From Escherichia phage vB_EcoM_Skers: a stretch of 64,000 nt of DNA. Made by a program: the position numbers and the translations under genes. The DNA lies in sequence record MW748999.1. One strand, given 5' to 3'. The notes beneath the pieces are model-generated. The model was not told where the DNA came from, did no database searches, and saw only the letters and a program-made list of their open reading frames with translations. Every line of letters starts with the position of its first letter. Position 1 is the first letter of the stretch. Below, piece after piece: positions 4,540 through 58,808 of the stretch.

Positions 4540-6363
4540 TTATGATTGCATCCAAATTTTGCGTTGATCTGCATCTTCACTATAGAGCAAATCGAATAGC
4601 TCTTTATAGTTTTCCGGTAACGTGATGATCTCCATTACAGGATCGTTGATCACGCGATGATAATCTGATTCTGTAAGCGATGCTAACCCTTTGATATATC
4701 GAATGTTGTAACCTTTGATATTATCTCGGTCGTTCTCGAAATCTTCTAGGTCATAATACCATCGAACATCATCACCTTTCTTTGGTTCCGCAATGATAAT
4801 AGGTGTTTTGATAAACCGGATTCGACCATCTTCGAACAATTCAGGCCAACGAGCAAAGAAAGAGATCAGACTAGGCTTAATAGACCCGATCCCGTCGGTA
4901 TCAGCGTCTGTCATAATCGCAATATTTTTGTATTGCATAACTTCCAATGCATCAACACCAAATTGCAAACCAGTGATCGCCATGATGTTAAAAATTTCAG
5001 CGTTCTTAACGATCTTTGCCTCCGGTTGTTCCCACGTTGTAAGAGTTTTGCCTCGCAACGGGAAACCGCCATGTAAATCTTGATCACGTACAGAGATCAG
5101 ATAGTTGATCGCGGAATCACCTTCCGTCAAAAACAGGGTAGTTTCTGCGTCAGTTCCAATAAGGTTAGCTTTAACGTGCTTTGCTACCTTAGCCCGTTTT
5201 GCTGCCTTTGCTGCCTTAGTCGCTGCCGCTTTATCTGCTGCCTCTTTGCGTGCCAGGACTACAGCAATAATAGGCATGATAATGTTTTCTTTCTTCGCAA
5301 TGACTTTAGCCAGCTTTTTAAAATCAAGATCAATATGACGCTTGATATCACCAGTCGGGTTAGTCAAGCGTTCTTTTGTCTGTGAATCAAAACGAAGGTT
5401 AGGCAATTCACGAACAATAAGAATACAGGTCAATCCAGATTTAACCGCAGCTTTAGTAACATCAACCTTATATTCTTTTTTGATTCGTTTTACAATCTCT
5501 TCACAAAGATCATCTGTCACATAATCAACGTGTGTTCCCCCGTTTTTGGTAAACAGACCGTTAGCAAAGGATACTGATTTAAAACCTTCTCCCTCGACCG
5601 CCGGAACGAGGGCAAGTGAAAAGTTTTTATCTTCAATGACAAACGGATCATCATTGTATAGTTTGGCATAATCCTTGAACTTGCTGGTTATCTTTTTGCC
5701 ATTAAACTTAAACGTGATCTTAGGAAAGATTACACTCAATGAATACATTCGATCGCAAATCACATCTGAAATTTCTTGTGACATGATCATACCTTCAAAA
5801 TGATCGAAATCGGGGCAGAACGTAACCTTAGTTCCTTTCAGTTTTGACGGCTTAGATGACCAGCTAATATTTTCTGCACCATTGGTACATTGAACGGTCA
5901 GTTCATTCTCTCCGTCACACGTCACACCAGTAAACCAGGACGAGAAAAATGATGTGAGCGCGCTTCCGATCCCATTCATACCCATAGTAACACGATTTGT
6001 ATCATCAAAGTTAGACCCTGCTTTAGCTCGTGTCCATGCAGCAACTGGTTGTGGAATCTGTTTCCCCTCTGGCGTCGTAACAATATGTTGCGGAATACCG
6101 CGACCATTATCTGTTACTGACACAATGTTATCTTTTATATCCACACTAATAACATTAGCGTACTCAAAATTAGTGCGGATCGCCTCGTCTACCGAGTTGT
6201 CGATGATCTCATCAATGATTTTAACCAGTCCAGGAACGTATGAAACTTTGGTCCATTTTCCAAATAGGAAACGATTGTGTGATTCATAAGTCGTTGACCC
6301 GATGTACATTGAAGGTCTCTTAAGACAGTGAGCGCGATCATCTAACAGCAAAAATTCAGACAT
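4540..6363 (-). CDS. 39: DNA topoisomerase II large subunit, unsplit (T4 gene 39 plus gene 60 equivalent in one ORF)
   Basis: 607 aa; N-terminus KRPSMYIGS..FGKW..YVPGLVKIIDEIIDNSVDEAIRT (GHKL ATPase) and C-terminal Toprim motif IAIMTDADTDG. Confidence 0.9.
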   Translation of the reverse strand: MSEFLLLDDRAHCLKRPSMYIGSTTYESHNRFLFGKWTKVSYVPGLVKIIDEIIDNSVDEAIRTNFEYANVISVDIKDNIVSVTDNGRGIPQHIVTTPEGKQIPQPVAAWTRAKAGSNFDDTNRVTMGMNGIGSALTSFFSSWFTGVTCDGENELTVQCTNGAENISWSSKPSKLKGTKVTFCPDFDHFEGMIMSQEISDVICDRMYSLSVIFPKITFKFNGKKITSKFKDYAKLYNDDPFVIEDKNFSLALVPAVEGEGFKSVSFANGLFTKNGGTHVDYVTDDLCEEIVKRIKKEYKVDVTKAAVKSGLTCILIVRELPNLRFDSQTKERLTNPTGDIKRHIDLDFKKLAKVIAKKENIIMPIIAVVLARKEAADKAAATKAAKAAKRAKVAKHVKANLIGTDAETTLFLTEGDSAINYLISVRDQDLHGGFPLRGKTLTTWEQPEAKIVKNAEIFNIMAITGLQFGVDALEVMQYKNIAIMTDADTDGIGSIKPSLISFFARWPELFEDGRIRFIKTPIIIAEPKKGDDVRWYYDLEDFENDRDNIKGYNIRYIKGLASLTESDYHRVINDPVMEIITLPENYKELFDLLYSEDADQRKIWMQS

Positions 6364-6369
6364 ATTATA

Positions 6370-7128
6370 TCATTCTCCGTCAGTTCGTTTCAGGTATTCC
6401 AATGCCGCATATAATCTTTGAGGATCGTCTTTGAACATCCCTAATCCGGCATTACATTTTCCACAAAGAACACCTCTTATCTTACCAGTCTTATGATTAT
6501 GGTCAAGATGTTTCCACTTTTGGCGTTTTCTCTCGCCGCATCGTTCATTTATGAATTTTACACCGCATATCTCGCAATTGTCAACTCTGCCTAAAATTTC
6601 TAACGCTTCTCTTTTTGATATTTTTATACCATTTTCGGCATGATGATATGGCCTATCTAGTTCTCGCTCTCGCTTCTCAAACAATCGACACTCATCAGAA
6701 CAATACTTTTGAGATGCGTTTATTGCAACAAATGGTTTACCACATTTAGCGCATTCTCGTTCAATCTTTATGTTTTGTGCCTGGTCCAACGATGCGCAAC
6801 GAGAACAGCAAAATTTATGATAGCCTCTAGAGTATGTATGATAATTTACAGGATTTGGGCATCTTGCACACTTAACTATTCCTGTTATTCCGTGGCGCAA
6901 TCTATAAACAGCCTCGTTATATGGTTGTTGATTTCTGAGACCTCCATTACAGAACTTAAACTCATTCCTTATAATCTGAAATTCCGCAGGATACAATTTT
7001 TCCATTTCTGGAATTTTATTTTCTTTAAAAAGATTTGAGTTTAGTCTATTTCCGCTTTTCGCCTCCAGAACATCAACAATAAACTTTTTGATGTTCACTT
7101 TTCTCTCTCCAATACATAACATAACCAT
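6370..7128 (-). CDS. HNH endonuclease of the endonuclease VII type with N-terminal zinc ribbons (putative free-standing homing endonuclease); start uncertain
   Basis: C-terminus CEICGVKF..WKHLDHNHKTGKIRGVLCGKCNAGLG resembles the EndoVII/gp49 catalytic motif (compare gp49 at 40824: HLDHDHDL..GRVRGLLHSCCN); several CxxC pairs upstream. Confidence 0.55.
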   Translation of the reverse strand: MVMLCIGERKVNIKKFIVDVLEAKSGNRLNSNLFKENKIPEMEKLYPAEFQIIRNEFKFCNGGLRNQQPYNEAVYRLRHGITGIVKCARCPNPVNYHTYSRGYHKFCCSRCASLDQAQNIKIERECAKCGKPFVAINASQKYCSDECRLFEKRERELDRPYHHAENGIKISKREALEILGRVDNCEICGVKFINERCGERKRQKWKHLDHNHKTGKIRGVLCGKCNAGLGMFKDDPQRLYAALEYLKRTDGE

Positions 7129-7200
7129 AACTTACTGCAACCGCCACAAAGACGGCTGCAACAATCATATTAAAAATTGAGTGATTGTCAAGTATATGAC

Positions 7201-7373
7201 TCATGACACGCGCACATTTTTATCATAGTACCCGCCATTAATCCCGCGCGGGGCAGTTAATCCCTGTTTGCATTCTTTACCACATTCAGGGCATTCTGCC
7301 TTTTCACGCTCGGAAATTTTGCGGATTTTCTGAAATTGACCGTGTTCTTCACAAGAATAATCGTATAATGGCA
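7201..7373 (-). CDS. FmdB-like zinc-ribbon small protein (start at MPLYDY)
   Basis: MPLYDYSCEEHGQF...ECPECGKE matches the FmdB-family zinc ribbon pattern; AGGGGA SD upstream of ATG at 7373. Confidence 0.4.
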
Positions 7374-7375
7374 TA

Positions 7376-8044
7376 TTATCCCCTTTGTTTCTTAACTGAA
7401 TTTGGATCTGGATTTTCTGGTAGGTCTTCCAGACCCATAGCATAACGTTGTGCATAGATTAGCATAAGAATATCGCGAGCGCAATCATGAATTGCATCAT
7501 GTGCGATAAAACCATCTAGCGTACCCATTGGTAACGGACACTCACACATCCCGCGATGCATCAATGTACGCTCAATGGCGGTGCGAACATCTCGGATATT
7601 CCAGAATCGCACAGGTTCAAGGCTGAACGTCTCTCGTGTATTGTGTGCACGGCGGATCATATCAACTAGTAACGGAATATCAAACGCATTACCGCGTGAC
7701 CACAATACGGATTTAACCGGATCTACTCCTACGGCTTCACAGAATGCGTTAAAACGCGCTAAACCTTCTTTAGTTGATACTTCCGTACCATTTGTGATTA
7801 ATTGCTTTCTCATGCCTTCTGAGGCGGTATTCTTCCACCATTCAACCACACCATGATCAAACACCCTTACACCTTTCTGGGAAGGAATATCAAATTTTAC
7901 CAGAAAGGAATTGTCCACCAGTTCTTTAAATGTAGGTGGATTGTGCGGATCTTCTTTAAATCCGATTGCCGCCATATTGATCACCGCCCCATCAGGCGGA
8001 TAACCTAAACTTTCAAAGTCAATCATTAAATCCACTGGAAGCAT
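7376..8044 (-). CDS. dexA: exonuclease A (DnaQ-like 3'-5' exonuclease)
   Basis: Starts MLPVDLMIDFESLG (DxE exonuclease motif); GGAGGA SD upstream of ATG at 8044; position between gene 39 region and dda as in T4. Confidence 0.7.
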   Translation of the reverse strand: MLPVDLMIDFESLGYPPDGAVINMAAIGFKEDPHNPPTFKELVDNSFLVKFDIPSQKGVRVFDHGVVEWWKNTASEGMRKQLITNGTEVSTKEGLARFNAFCEAVGVDPVKSVLWSRGNAFDIPLLVDMIRRAHNTRETFSLEPVRFWNIRDVRTAIERTLMHRGMCECPLPMGTLDGFIAHDAIHDCARDILMLIYAQRYAMGLEDLPENPDPNSVKKQRG

Positions 8045-8045
8045 T

Positions 8046-8288
8046 TTAAATATCCTCCGCGATATGCCGGAACAACTCCAGATCGTTTTTATCCAGAATG
8101 AAACCGCTACAATCAATAATCCCGTTACCGTAATTATCGGTTAACAGTCGGTCCGTTGCCATGTATGCGCGTACTTTGTTGTTAAAATTCATTACATGTT
8201 GTGCATAGTCACAATGAATCTTTTGACGGTTCCACGCGACAATTGATTGTAGATGTATTACATTAGCCATATTATTAATAACAACCAT
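8046..8288 (-). CDS. hypothetical small protein (dexA.x position)
   Basis: 80-aa ORF starting MVVINNMANV immediately after stop of upstream ORF (TGATATG junction). Confidence 0.35.
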   Translation of the reverse strand: MVVINNMANVIHLQSIVAWNRQKIHCDYAQHVMNFNNKVRAYMATDRLLTDNYGNGIIDCSGFILDKNDLELFRHIAEDI

Positions 8289-8340
8289 ATCAAAACCCTC
8301 GCTTAGTGGAATGTTCTGGCATTTTATTGATACATACAGC
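8285..8340 (-). repeat. direct repeat copy 1 (~56 bp, spans 3' end of a small gene plus start of the next)
   Basis: ccatatcaaaaccctcgcttagtggaatgttctggcattttattgatacatacagc is ~85% identical to 8463-8518. Confidence 0.5.
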
Positions 8341-8466
8341 TTGGTAGTCACGAGATTTTTTTGACGAATTAAGAGCTACAGCCAAAAAATCCTGTAACTG
8401 TTCGTTTGTCATTTTTGGCTTACACCGCGTATCTAAACCCTTCGTTCTTCTAGCTTCATTAGCCAT
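8290..8466 (-). CDS. hypothetical small protein (58 aa)
   Basis: ORF MANEARR...CINKMPEHSTKRGF; C-terminal 14 aa paralogous to the next small ORF. Confidence 0.35.
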   Translation of the reverse strand: MANEARRTKGLDTRCKPKMTNEQLQDFLAVALNSSKKSRDYQAVCINKMPEHSTKRGF

Positions 8467-8518
8467 ATCAAAAACCTCGCTTAGTGAAATGCTCGATCAT
8501 TTTATTGATACATGCAGC
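8463..8518 (-). repeat. direct repeat copy 2
   Basis: ccatatcaaaaacctcgcttagtgaaatgctcgatcattttattgatacatgcagc, partner of 8285-8340. Confidence 0.5.
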
Positions 8519-8635
8519 TTCACTATCGCCGGACACGTTCCAGCCGTATAGACCCCATCTAAAGCACATGGTAACAGTTCCATTGTGACGGCTTACCGTC
8601 ACATCATTAAATTCTGGGATACTTCGCATAATCAT
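8468..8635 (-). CDS. hypothetical small protein (55 aa)
   Basis: ORF MIMRSIPEF...CINKMIEHFTKRGF with GAGGAA SD. Confidence 0.35.
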   Translation of the reverse strand: MIMRSIPEFNDVTVSRHNGTVTMCFRWGLYGWNVSGDSEAACINKMIEHFTKRGF

Positions 8636-46476: not shown

Positions 46477-46738
46477 TACACGCTTTTAATGCATCAGTCG
46501 CGGTGTCATAGCGAGTATTATCATAGCACCAATAACCATCTGTCAACTGATAAATTAATCCATCCTTTTTAGCTTCGATGAAAGACAATTCTTTGAATGT
46601 TTCTACTTTCTTTGCTGATACTCCACGGTCACGGCGTTTATAGAGTTTAGCTAAAATGCGTTCAGCTTGTTCCTCTTTATCACCAGACAGATCCCAGATG
46701 ATGTTTCGGATATGCTTGATTAATTGTTTAGTGGTCAT
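46448..46738 (-). CDS. hypothetical protein
   Basis: 96-aa ORF downstream of promoter cassette. Confidence 0.4.
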   Translation of the reverse strand: MTTKQLIKHIRNIIWDLSGDKEEQAERILAKLYKRRDRGVSAKKVETFKELSFIEAKKDGLIYQLTDGYWCYDNTRYDTATDALKACNDHLRKTTI

Positions 46739-46767
46739 CTTTGATTCTCCTTAGTTGGTATGGTTAC

Positions 46768-46795
46768 ATTATACGGGGATTTCTCCCCGTGTCAA
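46768..46795 (-). promoter_or_regulatory. promoter-hairpin cassette (TTGACA-16-TATAAT, GGGGA/TCCCC palindrome)
   Basis: Minus-strand motifs upstream of ORF starting at 46738. Confidence 0.45.
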
Positions 46796-46798
46796 CAA

Positions 46799-47020
46799 TT
46801 AAATGATCTCTGCTTCACCGTTAAGGAAGAAAGACCATGTTTTGTTAGGATAGCGAAGCGCCCATGATTCAGCAGTTTTAACACCAGCTTCGAACAATTG
46901 ACGGCTGGTTACTTTAGCCATACCATCTTCGATGGCAACGTTTTCAATAATCATCGGGTACTTAGCGCCACGCATGAAACCGAAGCCAGCGGAAGATTTG
47001 ATAATTTTAACAGTTGCCAT
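46799..47020 (-). CDS. hypothetical protein
   Basis: 73-aa minus-strand ORF. Confidence 0.4.
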   Translation of the reverse strand: MATVKIIKSSAGFGFMRGAKYPMIIENVAIEDGMAKVTSRQLFEAGVKTAESWALRYPNKTWSFFLNGEAEII

Positions 47021-47060
47021 TTTTTGATTCTCCTAGAAAGTGTCGTGTTTCGATGGGTGT

Positions 47061-47089
47061 ATTATGCAATAACACCGGATCGCTGTCAA
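47061..47089 (-). promoter_or_regulatory. promoter cassette (TTGACA-17-CATAAT)
   Basis: Minus-strand motifs upstream of ORF starting at 47020. Confidence 0.4.
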
Positions 47090-47107
47090 CACTTTCTAAG
47101 AAAAAAT

Positions 47108-55722: not shown

Positions 55723-55914
55723 TTAGATTCCGGCGATCCTGCATATAGTTCTTGTATTAGCACCAATCAGGATCGCATTAACGACAACCATTCCCCAATC
55801 AACCCACTGATTATTATAAATGCTAAACCCGTTTGCAAGACCAAATACAAGCATTCCGGTACACATACTCAGAGCAATAATCAACATCACGGTAAAACCA
55901 AATGCAAATCTCAT
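55723..55914 (-). CDS. small hydrophobic membrane protein
   Basis: 63-aa ORF, two predicted TM segments. Confidence 0.3.
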   Translation of the reverse strand: MRFAFGFTVMLIIALSMCTGMLVFGLANGFSIYNNQWVDWGMVVVNAILIGANTRTICRIAGI

Positions 55915-55915
55915 A

Positions 55916-56182
55916 TTATTTTCCTTTTCTCTGTTTACGTTTATAAAAGTAATACATTACCTCATCGCGTCCGGTGATCCAACATGCTAGGGCGGTAAAC
56001 AGGTTTACAATTCCCAACACACCTACGGATGCGGCGCTGTCAACAGACATAGGAACAGTAAAGGCCATAGCTAACATAGCAACGCCACAAATGACATTAA
56101 GCACCATTATAATAAGACCGAAGAAAACCATTGTCAATCCTCCGACACAAGAAAACCAACAATCACGCCAGTGATAAGACAT
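55916..56182 (-). CDS. small hydrophobic membrane protein
   Basis: 88-aa ORF. Confidence 0.3.
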   Translation of the reverse strand: MSYHWRDCWFSCVGGLTMVFFGLIIMVLNVICGVAMLAMAFTVPMSVDSAASVGVLGIVNLFTALACWITGRDEVMYYFYKRKQRKGK

Positions 56183-56325
56183 GATGCGCCGCTAATCAGA
56201 CAACCCACACCAAGTGATTCCCACCAGATCAGAGAAGCGACAATAACACAGAATCCCCATACTACCGCAATCACAACATAGGCAAGGGTCGCCCAAAACA
56301 TATATTTGTTCATAATAAATCCCAT
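56134..56325 (-). CDS. small hydrophobic membrane protein
   Basis: 63-aa ORF. Confidence 0.3.
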   Translation of the reverse strand: MGFIMNKYMFWATLAYVVIAVVWGFCVIVASLIWWESLGVGCLISGASCLITGVIVGFLVSED

Positions 56326-56498
56326 TCACCAAACAAATAAGAAAAAAGCCATATCAACAGAAACGAGGCAATTGATCCGGCAAGCAAAATGATATTAGAG
56401 AATCCGCCGTCTATCCAGGCGACAAAACAGAATACGCCAGTATAGAAGCATAAACCCAGTACAAAGCATACTATAAGCAACCATAGATAAAACGCCAT
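56310..56498 (-). CDS. small hydrophobic membrane protein
   Basis: 62-aa ORF. Confidence 0.3.
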   Translation of the reverse strand: MAFYLWLLIVCFVLGLCFYTGVFCFVAWIDGGFSNIILLAGSIASFLLIWLFSYLFGEWDLL

Positions 56499-56559
56499 AG
56501 AAATCCCTCCAGTGAGCTAATTTAGTGCGGGTAGTACATTACCCTACCCGTATTGTTAA

Positions 56560-56718
56560 TCATCGCAGAGCTTCTTCTAGCGCGATCCCAAACCATCCAC
56601 AAACAACGCCCATACAGACAGCTACAAGAAGATTCATTCTCTCTTTAGGGATCATTGCAATCATAACAACAACCATACAGAAAGCCATTACCATTGAAGT
56701 TAACATTTGTTCAACCAT
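56560..56718 (-). CDS. small hydrophobic membrane protein (52 aa)
   Basis: ORF MVEQMLTSMVMAFCMVVVMIAMIP...; its 5' part is duplicated in the artifact at 56906-56978. Confidence 0.3.
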   Translation of the reverse strand: MVEQMLTSMVMAFCMVVVMIAMIPKERMNLLVAVCMGVVCGWFGIALEEALR

Positions 56719-56757
56719 TATCACACCTTTAAAGTCATAGACGCATAAACATTAATG

Positions 56758-57017
56758 GAAGAGCGTCGTGTAGGGTTGGGGGGTCGGGGGGCCAAACAAC
56801 GCCCATACAGACAGCTACAAGAAGATTCATTCTCTCTTTACACAACGAACACAAAACTCTACAGAAATCTAAACACTCAAAGTCTACACGACGCTCTTCC
56901 GATCTCTTTAGGGATCATTGCAATCATAACAACAACCATACAGAAAGCCATTACCATTGAAGTTAACATTTGTTCAACCATTATCACACCTTTAAAGTCA
57001 TAGACGCATAAACATTA
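56758..57017. other. probable assembly artifact: Illumina adapter sequence plus re-duplicated flanking phage sequence
   Basis: GGAAGAGCGTCGTGTAGGG (adapter reverse complement) + poly-G junk, then copy of 56601-56647, then ACACGACGCTCTTCCGATCT (adapter), then second copy of 56643-56757. Confidence 0.8.
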
Positions 57018-57322
57018 ATGCCAGGCCAGTTAGGATCGCAATTATACTCAACATCCCACAAATAAAGCGGTTTAGATGTATCAGCCAAGTTTTTAAAATC
57101 TTCTACCCACATTTCAAGGCTATAGGATGGATAAACTAGGCTATCATATCCGCCGTAACGTTGGCCTACTGGTCGGTCAGTAAAAACTACCTCAAGATCC
57201 GGTAATTCTTTTTCAAGGATAACCGCCAGCGCATAAATCAGACGGTCTTCCTTGTTACGCTGCCGAAGGACCGTTGTCAGTTGGTTTTTCTGGTTCACTA
57301 GCAAGCACCTCCACATTTTCAC
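56984..57322 (-). CDS. hypothetical protein (start uncertain, possibly GTG at ~57298)
   Basis: 112-aa ORF; its 3' end lies in the duplicated segment. Confidence 0.35.
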   Translation of the reverse strand: MKMWRCLLVNQKNQLTTVLRQRNKEDRLIYALAVILEKELPDLEVVFTDRPVGQRYGGYDSLVYPSYSLEMWVEDFKNLADTSKPLYLWDVEYNCDPNWPGINVYASMTLKV

Positions 57323-57575
57323 AGAATGAAATTTTCACAGACACAATTTTACCATAAGTGAAGAATGAATATACATTATCGAGATATTCAACGTCACCTA
57401 CAATCACATCAAACTGCGGATCAGCAACCGCCGCAACATATTCTACCAGTTCATCAAGAGAATGCAACTTAATTTCATCAATTCGGCTGTATTTGGTTGC
57501 ATCTTTAATTTTAAAACCACGTTCTTTCAGTTTGTCAATCAGAATTTCACGCGGAGTTTCAAACAGTTTGCTCAT
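57255..57575 (-). CDS. hypothetical acidic protein
   Basis: 106-aa minus-strand ORF. Confidence 0.35.
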   Translation of the reverse strand: MSKLFETPREILIDKLKERGFKIKDATKYSRIDEIKLHSLDELVEYVAAVADPQFDVIVGDVEYLDNVYSFFTYGKIVSVKISFCENVEVLASEPEKPTDNGPSAA

Positions 57576-57596
57576 AATATAATCCTCACATTAAAT

Positions 57597-57797
57597 CTAA
57601 AATTTGTTAACGACGAATTGCATAATTAGACTAATCACAAACATTGCAAACCAAGTATAAATGCAACAGATAAAAGCTACATACAATTCAATCTGGTCAG
57701 AGAATACACCGGGTAAAAGCATTAGCAAAATAACAACAGTAAAGACGCTAGCGATACCCGCAACAAAACCAATATCATTTTTCCTAATCGTCATCAA
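57597..57797 (-). CDS. small hydrophobic membrane protein
   Basis: 66-aa ORF. Confidence 0.3.
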   Translation of the reverse strand: MMTIRKNDIGFVAGIASVFTVVILLMLLPGVFSDQIELYVAFICCIYTWFAMFVISLIMQFVVNKF

Positions 57798-57991
57798 GTC
57801 ACCGTTTTGTAAAGAAACACAATAAAATCCAAGACAAGAAAGACAGTGTAAATGATCATCGTCAAGCCAGTAAACACTGTCAGATTTTCATCGTTAGTTA
57901 ATTCATAGTCGCCCATCCATACAATCACAAGATATAGCATTGAAATAATGGAAGCACATACGAAGTTGAAAAACATATTCTTGATCGTCAT
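57794..57991 (-). CDS. small hydrophobic membrane protein
   Basis: 65-aa ORF. Confidence 0.3.
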   Translation of the reverse strand: MTIKNMFFNFVCASIISMLYLVIVWMGDYELTNDENLTVFTGLTMIIYTVFLVLDFIVFLYKTVT

Positions 57992-57992
57992 A

Positions 57993-58175
57993 TTAACAAT
58001 CCTCGCGGCTTAAGTCAACTGCAATTGCATACAGCATAATGAATATGCTAGCAGATCCGAGAATCAATGCACCGTCACATTTTGAAACTCGCTCATCAAA
58101 ATGCAACATTATCAATCCGAGGATGTTAAAGGCGCATACCGCGCCTATGTTCGCTAACCAATTAATCTTTTTCAT
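57993..58175 (-). CDS. small hydrophobic membrane protein
   Basis: 60-aa ORF. Confidence 0.3.
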   Translation of the reverse strand: MKKINWLANIGAVCAFNILGLIMLHFDERVSKCDGALILGSASIFIMLYAIAVDLSREDC

Positions 58176-58510: not shown

Positions 58511-58601
58511 TTGATACTCCTTAGTGTGTTTCGATGAGGTAACTATACTCTAGCCACCTCATTAAGTTTTAACAAAAAGTGCTATTTTCTAGTTTAATGT
58601 A

Positions 58602-58745
58602 TCAATCCCAGACAATCCAAACCTGTATAGAAGACTTTGCATCTGGGTTATCTTTAAGGATTTTATCAATGGCATTGTTTAGCTTCTCTCTTGTTTTGAA
58701 CAAACCAACAATACAACCCATTGCTTGTAATTTAAAAACTGGCAT
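58602..58745 (-). CDS. hypothetical small protein (47 aa)
   Basis: ORF MPVFKLQAMGCIVGLFKTREKL... downstream of promoter cassette; not in track. Confidence 0.3.
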   Translation of the reverse strand: MPVFKLQAMGCIVGLFKTREKLNNAIDKILKDNPDAKSSIQVWIVWD

Positions 58746-58779
58746 TTACCCCCCCATATCTTCTCGTTTCGATGGGTGT

Positions 58780-58808
58780 ATTATGCTATACACCCTCTCG
58801 TATGTCAA
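58780..58808 (-). promoter_or_regulatory. promoter-hairpin cassette (TTGACA-17-CATAAT inside GGGTGTAT/ATACACCC palindrome)
   Basis: Minus-strand motifs. Confidence 0.45.

Follow-up and report, generated by a model that had tools for sequence, protein, structure and literature searches.

Screens such as VecScreen/UniVec and NCBI FCS-adaptor exist to detect adapter contamination of Illumina assemblies. Matches to the P5 adapter of at least 28 nt are present in 25 of 50,697 deposited phage records, the majority of them terminal and some internal. In IMG/VR, at least 120 contigs contain the exact 33-mer of the adapter's reverse complement, and nearly all of the matches listed lie within ~100 nt of a contig end. 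A problem of the same class, on another platform and with other oligonucleotides, is recognised for ONT adapter and barcode carry-over in GenBank, where incompletely trimmed synthetic oligonucleotides are found in deposited assemblies (PMC13182109). Two internal cases in phage genomes share the anatomy of the locus described here. In the Escherichia phage HMD-P3 (PQ462667.1, 7536-7605), native sequence is followed by a perfect 70-nt dual-index TruSeq P5 adapter and then by a 40-nt re-copy, and the endonuclease gene is split into two CDSs (XIJ71930/XIJ71931). In the Acinetobacter phage TAC1 (MK170160.1, ~22.6 kb), native sequence gives way to the reverse complement of the P5 adapter, which passes into junk and a T-run, followed by the forward adapter and a 32-nt re-copy; here, too, a real gene is broken, the tail fibre being annotated as two CDSs (TAC_0042/TAC_0043). 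Separately, vB_EcoM_01 (PP129558.1, ~101.9 kb) carries an N run, then TTTTT, then a P5-Nextera adapter, together with an exact direct repeat of 143 nt whose copies are 733 nt apart, and this locus looks like another adapter-bearing scaffold join. The T-run located 5' of AATGATACGG in both TAC1 and vB_EcoM_01 fits the poly-T spacer of flow-cell oligonucleotides, which implies that these reads extended through the whole template.

The window analysed here, 64,000 nucleotides of Escherichia phage vB_EcoM_Skers (MW748999.1), belongs to a Krischvirus, an RB49-like member of the Straboviridae. It contains a non-biological insert of 263 nt at 56758-57020, the excision of which gives back native phage sequence (Table 1). 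The added DNA comprises a 35-nt stretch in which adapter is followed by G-rich junk (56758-56792), the 158-nt re-copy and 70 nt of adapter, and the resulting 263 nt is the period, start to start, that a repeat finder returned for both repeat families. The 70-nt adapter slot splits the second copy of the re-copied native segment exactly at 56642/56643, and the exact match that continues to 56840 overlaps the first 5 nt of this slot. The first G of GGAAGAGCGTCGTGTAGGG (56757) fits the native sequence as well as the adapter, which places the adapter start of the first-pass annotation, 56758, within 1 nt, and the exact direct repeat is 118 nt (56640-56757 = 56903-57020) rather than 115 because the adapter-terminal TCT equals native 56640-56642. 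The re-copied segments are 100% identical to their sources, and the ends of the duplication coincide to the base with the adapter junctions. Reading of the sequence and the repeat finder thus bore out every component named in the first-pass annotation, namely a reverse-complement universal adapter, G-rich junk, re-copies and a degraded adapter prefix; the first re-copy is real, although its source, given there as 56601-56647, starts at 56600.

Table 1. Features of the insert and of its flanking genes in the 64,000-nucleotide window.
Feature	Position	Strand	Details
Native phage sequence	up to 56757	+ (reading)	
Native segment copied again inside the insert	56600-56757	+	158 nt
GGAAGAGCGTCGTGTAGGG, exact 19-mer of the reverse complement of the Illumina P5/TruSeq universal adapter	56757-56775	-	
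G-rich junk TTGGGGGGTCGGGGGGC	56776-56792	+	12 G in 17 nt
Exact copy of native 56600-56647	56793-56840	+	48 nt
Second copy of native 56600-56642	56793-56835	+	Exactness continues to 56840 (= 56647)
Dual-index P5 adapter slot, full length	56836-56905	+	70 nt
Degraded adapter prefix, A-rich	56841-56883	+	43 nt
Perfect adapter 22-mer CTACACGACGCTCTTCCGATCT	56884-56905	+	3' end of the P5 adapter
Exact copy of native 56643-56757	56906-57020	+	115 nt, 100% identical
Gene A, real, intact	56984-57316	-	110 aa; phrog_16246, E = 1e-71, 104/104 profile positions
Gene B, small membrane protein, real, intact	56560-56718	-	52 aa; phrog_16035, E = 1.5e-37, 52/52 profile positions
Spurious ORF	56877-56981	-	34 aa; first 26 residues of gene B plus adapter-encoded ...EIGRASCRL
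Spurious ORF	56755-57003	+	82 aa; begins inside the adapter: ATGGAAGAGCGTCGTGTAGGG = MEERRVG

The adapter pieces are recognisable beyond their perfect cores. The exact 19-mer and the exact 22-mer of the P5 adapter stand in opposite orientations; for an adapter 15-mer with at most two mismatches the chance expectation is 0.07 occurrences per window, against two observed, each exact and each in the insert. The reverse-complement copy begins GGAAGAGC, its 19-mer corresponding to positions 6-24 of AGATCGGAAGAGCGTCGTGTAGGG... with the first five bases, AGATC, absent, so that this copy displays no canonical adapter junction; the GATCT end of the forward copy, by contrast, directly adjoins native 56643. 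For the forward copy, the 70-nt dual-index layout (AATGATACGGCGACCACCGAGATCTACAC, an 8-nt index and ACACTCTTTCCCTACACGACGCTCTTCCGATCT, reference sequences that we take to be those of the TruSeq design) was anchored on the perfect 22-mer and aligned without gaps. Over the slot, 45 of the 62 specified positions agree and 17 are wrong. Upstream of the 22-mer, in the register that it fixes, 23 of the 40 specified positions agree; among 127,906 placements in the window, only 3 do as well. The A-rich stretch is therefore a badly read remainder of the adapter. The 8-nt index slot (56865-56872) reads AAATCTAA, which, on the TruSeq index list as we assume it, is two mismatches from D506 (TAATCTTA); a match this close to one of eight indices has a chance of ~3% and serves only as a lead.

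Both copies decay in the same manner, with identity at 100% beside the phage insert and about 55-60% farther away. Substitutions in the leftward tail number 17, of which 9 change the base to T in the direction of reading, and the rightward tail collapses into G where the adapter should go on as AAAGAGTGT and the index. This G-rich junk resembles a decayed read tail, and 20-nt windows with at least 14 G occur nowhere else in the 64 kb. The AAA/TTT triplet of the adapter deviates in both copies alike. The strong predicted DNA hairpin of the insert (z = -4.7) was considered as a biological structure and rejected, being merely the two adapter arms pairing.

Set against the precedents, the insert is an assembly artefact of a familiar and unremarkable type, without biological content. 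It shares with Illumina adapter contamination in general the exact 19- and 22-mers, the 70-nt layout with an 8-nt index slot, the decaying homopolymer-rich tails and the absence from relatives, whereas most such cases sit at contig ends and this one is internal with a 158-nt duplication; much of its adapter is, moreover, too degraded for an exact-match screen. As in HMD-P3, native sequence runs straight into the 5' end of the adapter and the preceding native bases are re-copied after it, although HMD-P3 has a perfect adapter, a shorter duplication, no reverse-complement arm and no poly-G, and its gene is split. The order of the parts, and the inverted repeat formed by the adapter arms, are those of TAC1, which differs in carrying Nextera rather than TruSeq adapters, a shorter re-copied flank, no native piece between the arms and a broken gene.

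A megablast search with 55800-58000 as the query against the phage collection matched 58 records at 90-99% identity, all of Krischvirus, and the insert is absent from 58/58, none covering the adapter-derived bases. The 2200-2201-nt query corresponds to 1922-1943 nt in the top 30 relatives, and coverage of the region by any single record of the phage collection is at most 96%. The whole window is collinear with GoldenSnicker, with the insert as the sole break at which subject coordinates overlap; such overlap at a break is the signature of a duplication. Five relatives were checked base by base (GoldenSnicker, G2494, LF73P4, RB49 and W115). The 48-mer is present as a single copy in each of the five, and the 118-mer as one exact copy in four, RB49 being without an exact copy. 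The 40-mer of the repaired junction (56738-56757 joined to 57021-57040) is exact in all five, whereas the junction that would follow from removing 260 nt (56758-57017) is found in none of them, so that the excision to make is 56758-57020 or any stretch cyclically equivalent to it. The removal of 56758-57017 proposed in the first-pass annotation accordingly holds at its start and fails at its end, where it leaves three extra bases. Beyond the phage collection, the 40-mer across the phage/adapter junction had no match in IMG/VR, GTDB genomes or JGI metagenomes.

The flanking genes are those of the relatives. A counterpart of gene A is annotated in GoldenSnicker and G2494, and gene B is annotated in relatives, in W115 as a putative membrane protein; in relatives the two meet at TGA-TA-ATG. 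Both repeat copies carry this junction in the window, the gene A stop codon falling in the second copy and the gene B start codon in the first, and because the stop/start junction exists in both copies, both genes are already complete. Excision thus drops a truncated extra copy and mends no broken gene, although the first-pass annotation had it restoring a clean stop/start junction. The truncated copy is the ORF at 56877-56981, in which residues 1-26 alone match phrog_16035 (positions 1-26 of 52); its adapter-encoded part has no family, and ORF 56755-57003 likewise gave no PHROG match. Both plus-strand ORFs that had been called spurious are indeed so, although only 56755-57003 was created by the artefact. 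The other, 56525-56740, is wholly native sequence, identical in relatives, and is spurious because it is antisense to the conserved gene B and has no family match.

That the pieces are adapter, that the flank is duplicated exactly and that relatives lack the insert are direct observations, and 56758-57020 is almost certainly an in-silico artefact of an Illumina-based assembly rather than phage DNA, an explanation whose read-through origin and assembly path we infer. The P5 adapter in both orientations, the fully identical re-copied flanks and the 58 Krischvirus records without the insert all uphold the earlier suspicion of a chimeric assembly artefact. Two reads, or small groups of reads, from short-insert fragments would have run past the ends of their inserts into the P5 adapter and been left untrimmed. 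One tail would head rightward, leaving the phage at 56757, and the other leftward, leaving it at native 56643; both would be read-2-type read-through into the P5 arm. Each adapter piece is perfect where it meets phage sequence and loses fidelity with distance, as low-quality read tails do. These tails may then have been walked through rather than clipped, by the assembler or during finishing, with re-entry into the genome 158 nt upstream, so that 56600-56757 was covered a second time. The path could have been a low-coverage loop in the de Bruijn graph, in which an adapter k-mer and its reverse complement share one node, or the overlapping contig ends of a circularly permuted genome may have been joined without trimming; both routes are compatible with the data. 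Post-assembly rotation was also considered: a window beginning at the rIIA stop, where Krischvirus records conventionally start, would have pointed to a re-oriented genome with joined contig ends. The window begins 1,335 nt upstream of that point, and nothing could be inferred. Simple read-through does not account for the AGATC missing from the reverse-complement adapter, for the perfect 43-48-nt native piece between two decayed tails, or for the AAA/TTT deviation common to both adapter copies.

The artefact could instead have been made at the bench, if a library molecule of the form phage-adapter-phage (an adapter concatemer or a PCR template-switch product) had been sequenced and faithfully assembled. 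Such a physical chimera would be an artefact, too, and it would explain why native sequence lies directly 5' of the adapter 5' end, here and in HMD-P3, which no normal single read should show. The 17 wrong positions of 62, with their gradient of errors, nevertheless point to a few low-quality read tails and not to a well-covered molecule, and the G-rich run resembles a base-calling tail. The chemistry is also unfavourable: in the TruSeq Y-adapter the 5' end of the P5 arm is single-stranded and not expected to be ligated. We therefore regard a bench-made chimera as unlikely, and favour read tails joined during assembly.

Explanations that retain some phage DNA fare worse. A genuine 158-bp tandem duplication of native 56600-56757, in the phage or a subpopulation, with adapter junk mis-assembled into the repeat, would draw on the general tendency of tandem repeats to attract assembly errors, a point with nothing specific to this locus. 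However, no second copy occurs in any of the 58 related genomes, the two copies here do not differ at a single base, and the boundaries match the adapter junctions to the base, unlike those of a biological duplication, so that this reading is highly improbable. The joint itself is synthetic adapter, the copies show no divergence and relatives have a single copy; the direct repeat of ~115 bp is, as the first-pass annotation held, not biological. It is equally hard to credit that minority genomes carry a real duplication over the gene A/gene B junction, at which the assembler stalled and took up adapter tails; the adapter would in that case still be junk. We found no supporting point for real phage or engineered DNA (e.g. 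a barcode cassette with Illumina primer sites) or for a chance resemblance to the adapter, and give this group of readings next to no weight. Two exact copies of an adapter 15-mer stand against the chance expectation given above, an engineered cassette would have intact primer sites rather than a decayed adapter, poly-G and a re-copied flank, and real DNA is opposed by a segment that has no protein family match and is missing from all 58 relatives. Chance resemblance and deliberate engineering are effectively excluded, and read-through tails taken up by the assembly remain the explanation that we prefer.

The rest of the 64 kb appears free of the problem. An 11-mer screen with 12 adapter/vector oligonucleotides, combined with a homopolymer scan, revealed no further adapter sequence in the window, the P5 adapter being matched at the insert locus only. 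A second artefact was considered at 6310-7115, at 8093-8464 and at a junction near 46.8 kb, and rejected, since searches with 6200-8550 and 46500-47100 found these arrangements to be common to other Krischviruses and so to reflect ordinary mosaicism. The segments at 6310-7115 and 8093-8464 are absent from GoldenSnicker and present in 12 other Krischvirus records, in the matched region of which an endonuclease is annotated; they are ordinary mosaicism, probably insertions of the homing-endonuclease type.

A different kind of segment lies at 58533-58764, where ~230 nt within an otherwise 98%-conserved block are missing in GoldenSnicker. It had no megablast match in the 50,697 phage records or in 5,426 E. 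coli genomes, and no exact 41-mer of it was found in IMG/VR. The same artefact was rejected here, as the segment carries no adapter k-mers. It contains a minus-strand ORF of 47 aa (58602-58745; MPVFKLQAMGCIVGLFKTREKLNNAIDKILKDNPDAKSSIQVWIVWD), for which tblastn found no match in phages, and it may be an orphan accessory gene cassette. A 25-nt motif (GTTTCGATG...) occurs on either side of the segment, at 58528-58552 and 58766-58790, the two copies being 72% identical, and a small hairpin (58534-58562) overlaps the first of them. The only part with distant matches is the first ~70 nt (58524-58595), shared with several hundred Escherichia, Salmonella and Klebsiella phage records. This arrangement may resemble the promoter/stem-loop cassettes through which genes are reported to be shuffled among phages of the RB49 group. 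Elsewhere on the minus strand, 55723-56498 and 57597-58175 contain many closely packed hydrophobic ORFs of very small size (about 50-90 aa), which sit upstream of the endolysin gene (55305-55694, minus strand) and are annotated in W115 as putative membrane proteins.

The importance of the insert is one of data quality only, and the record should lose 56758-57020. Left uncorrected, it leads gene callers to emit adapter-derived proteins (MEERRVG... and ...EIGRASCRL) and a second, truncated version of a small membrane protein, and its false direct repeat of 115-158 bp could be mistaken for a recombination hotspot, a terminal repeat or an att-like site. Degradation affects 43 of the 70 adapter bases, so that a screen relying on exact adapter matches would see only cores of ~20 nt and could miss the insert. 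The combination of an adapter core with a duplicated flank would make a useful curation screen for phage databases, since the same anatomy breaks real genes in HMD-P3 and TAC1.
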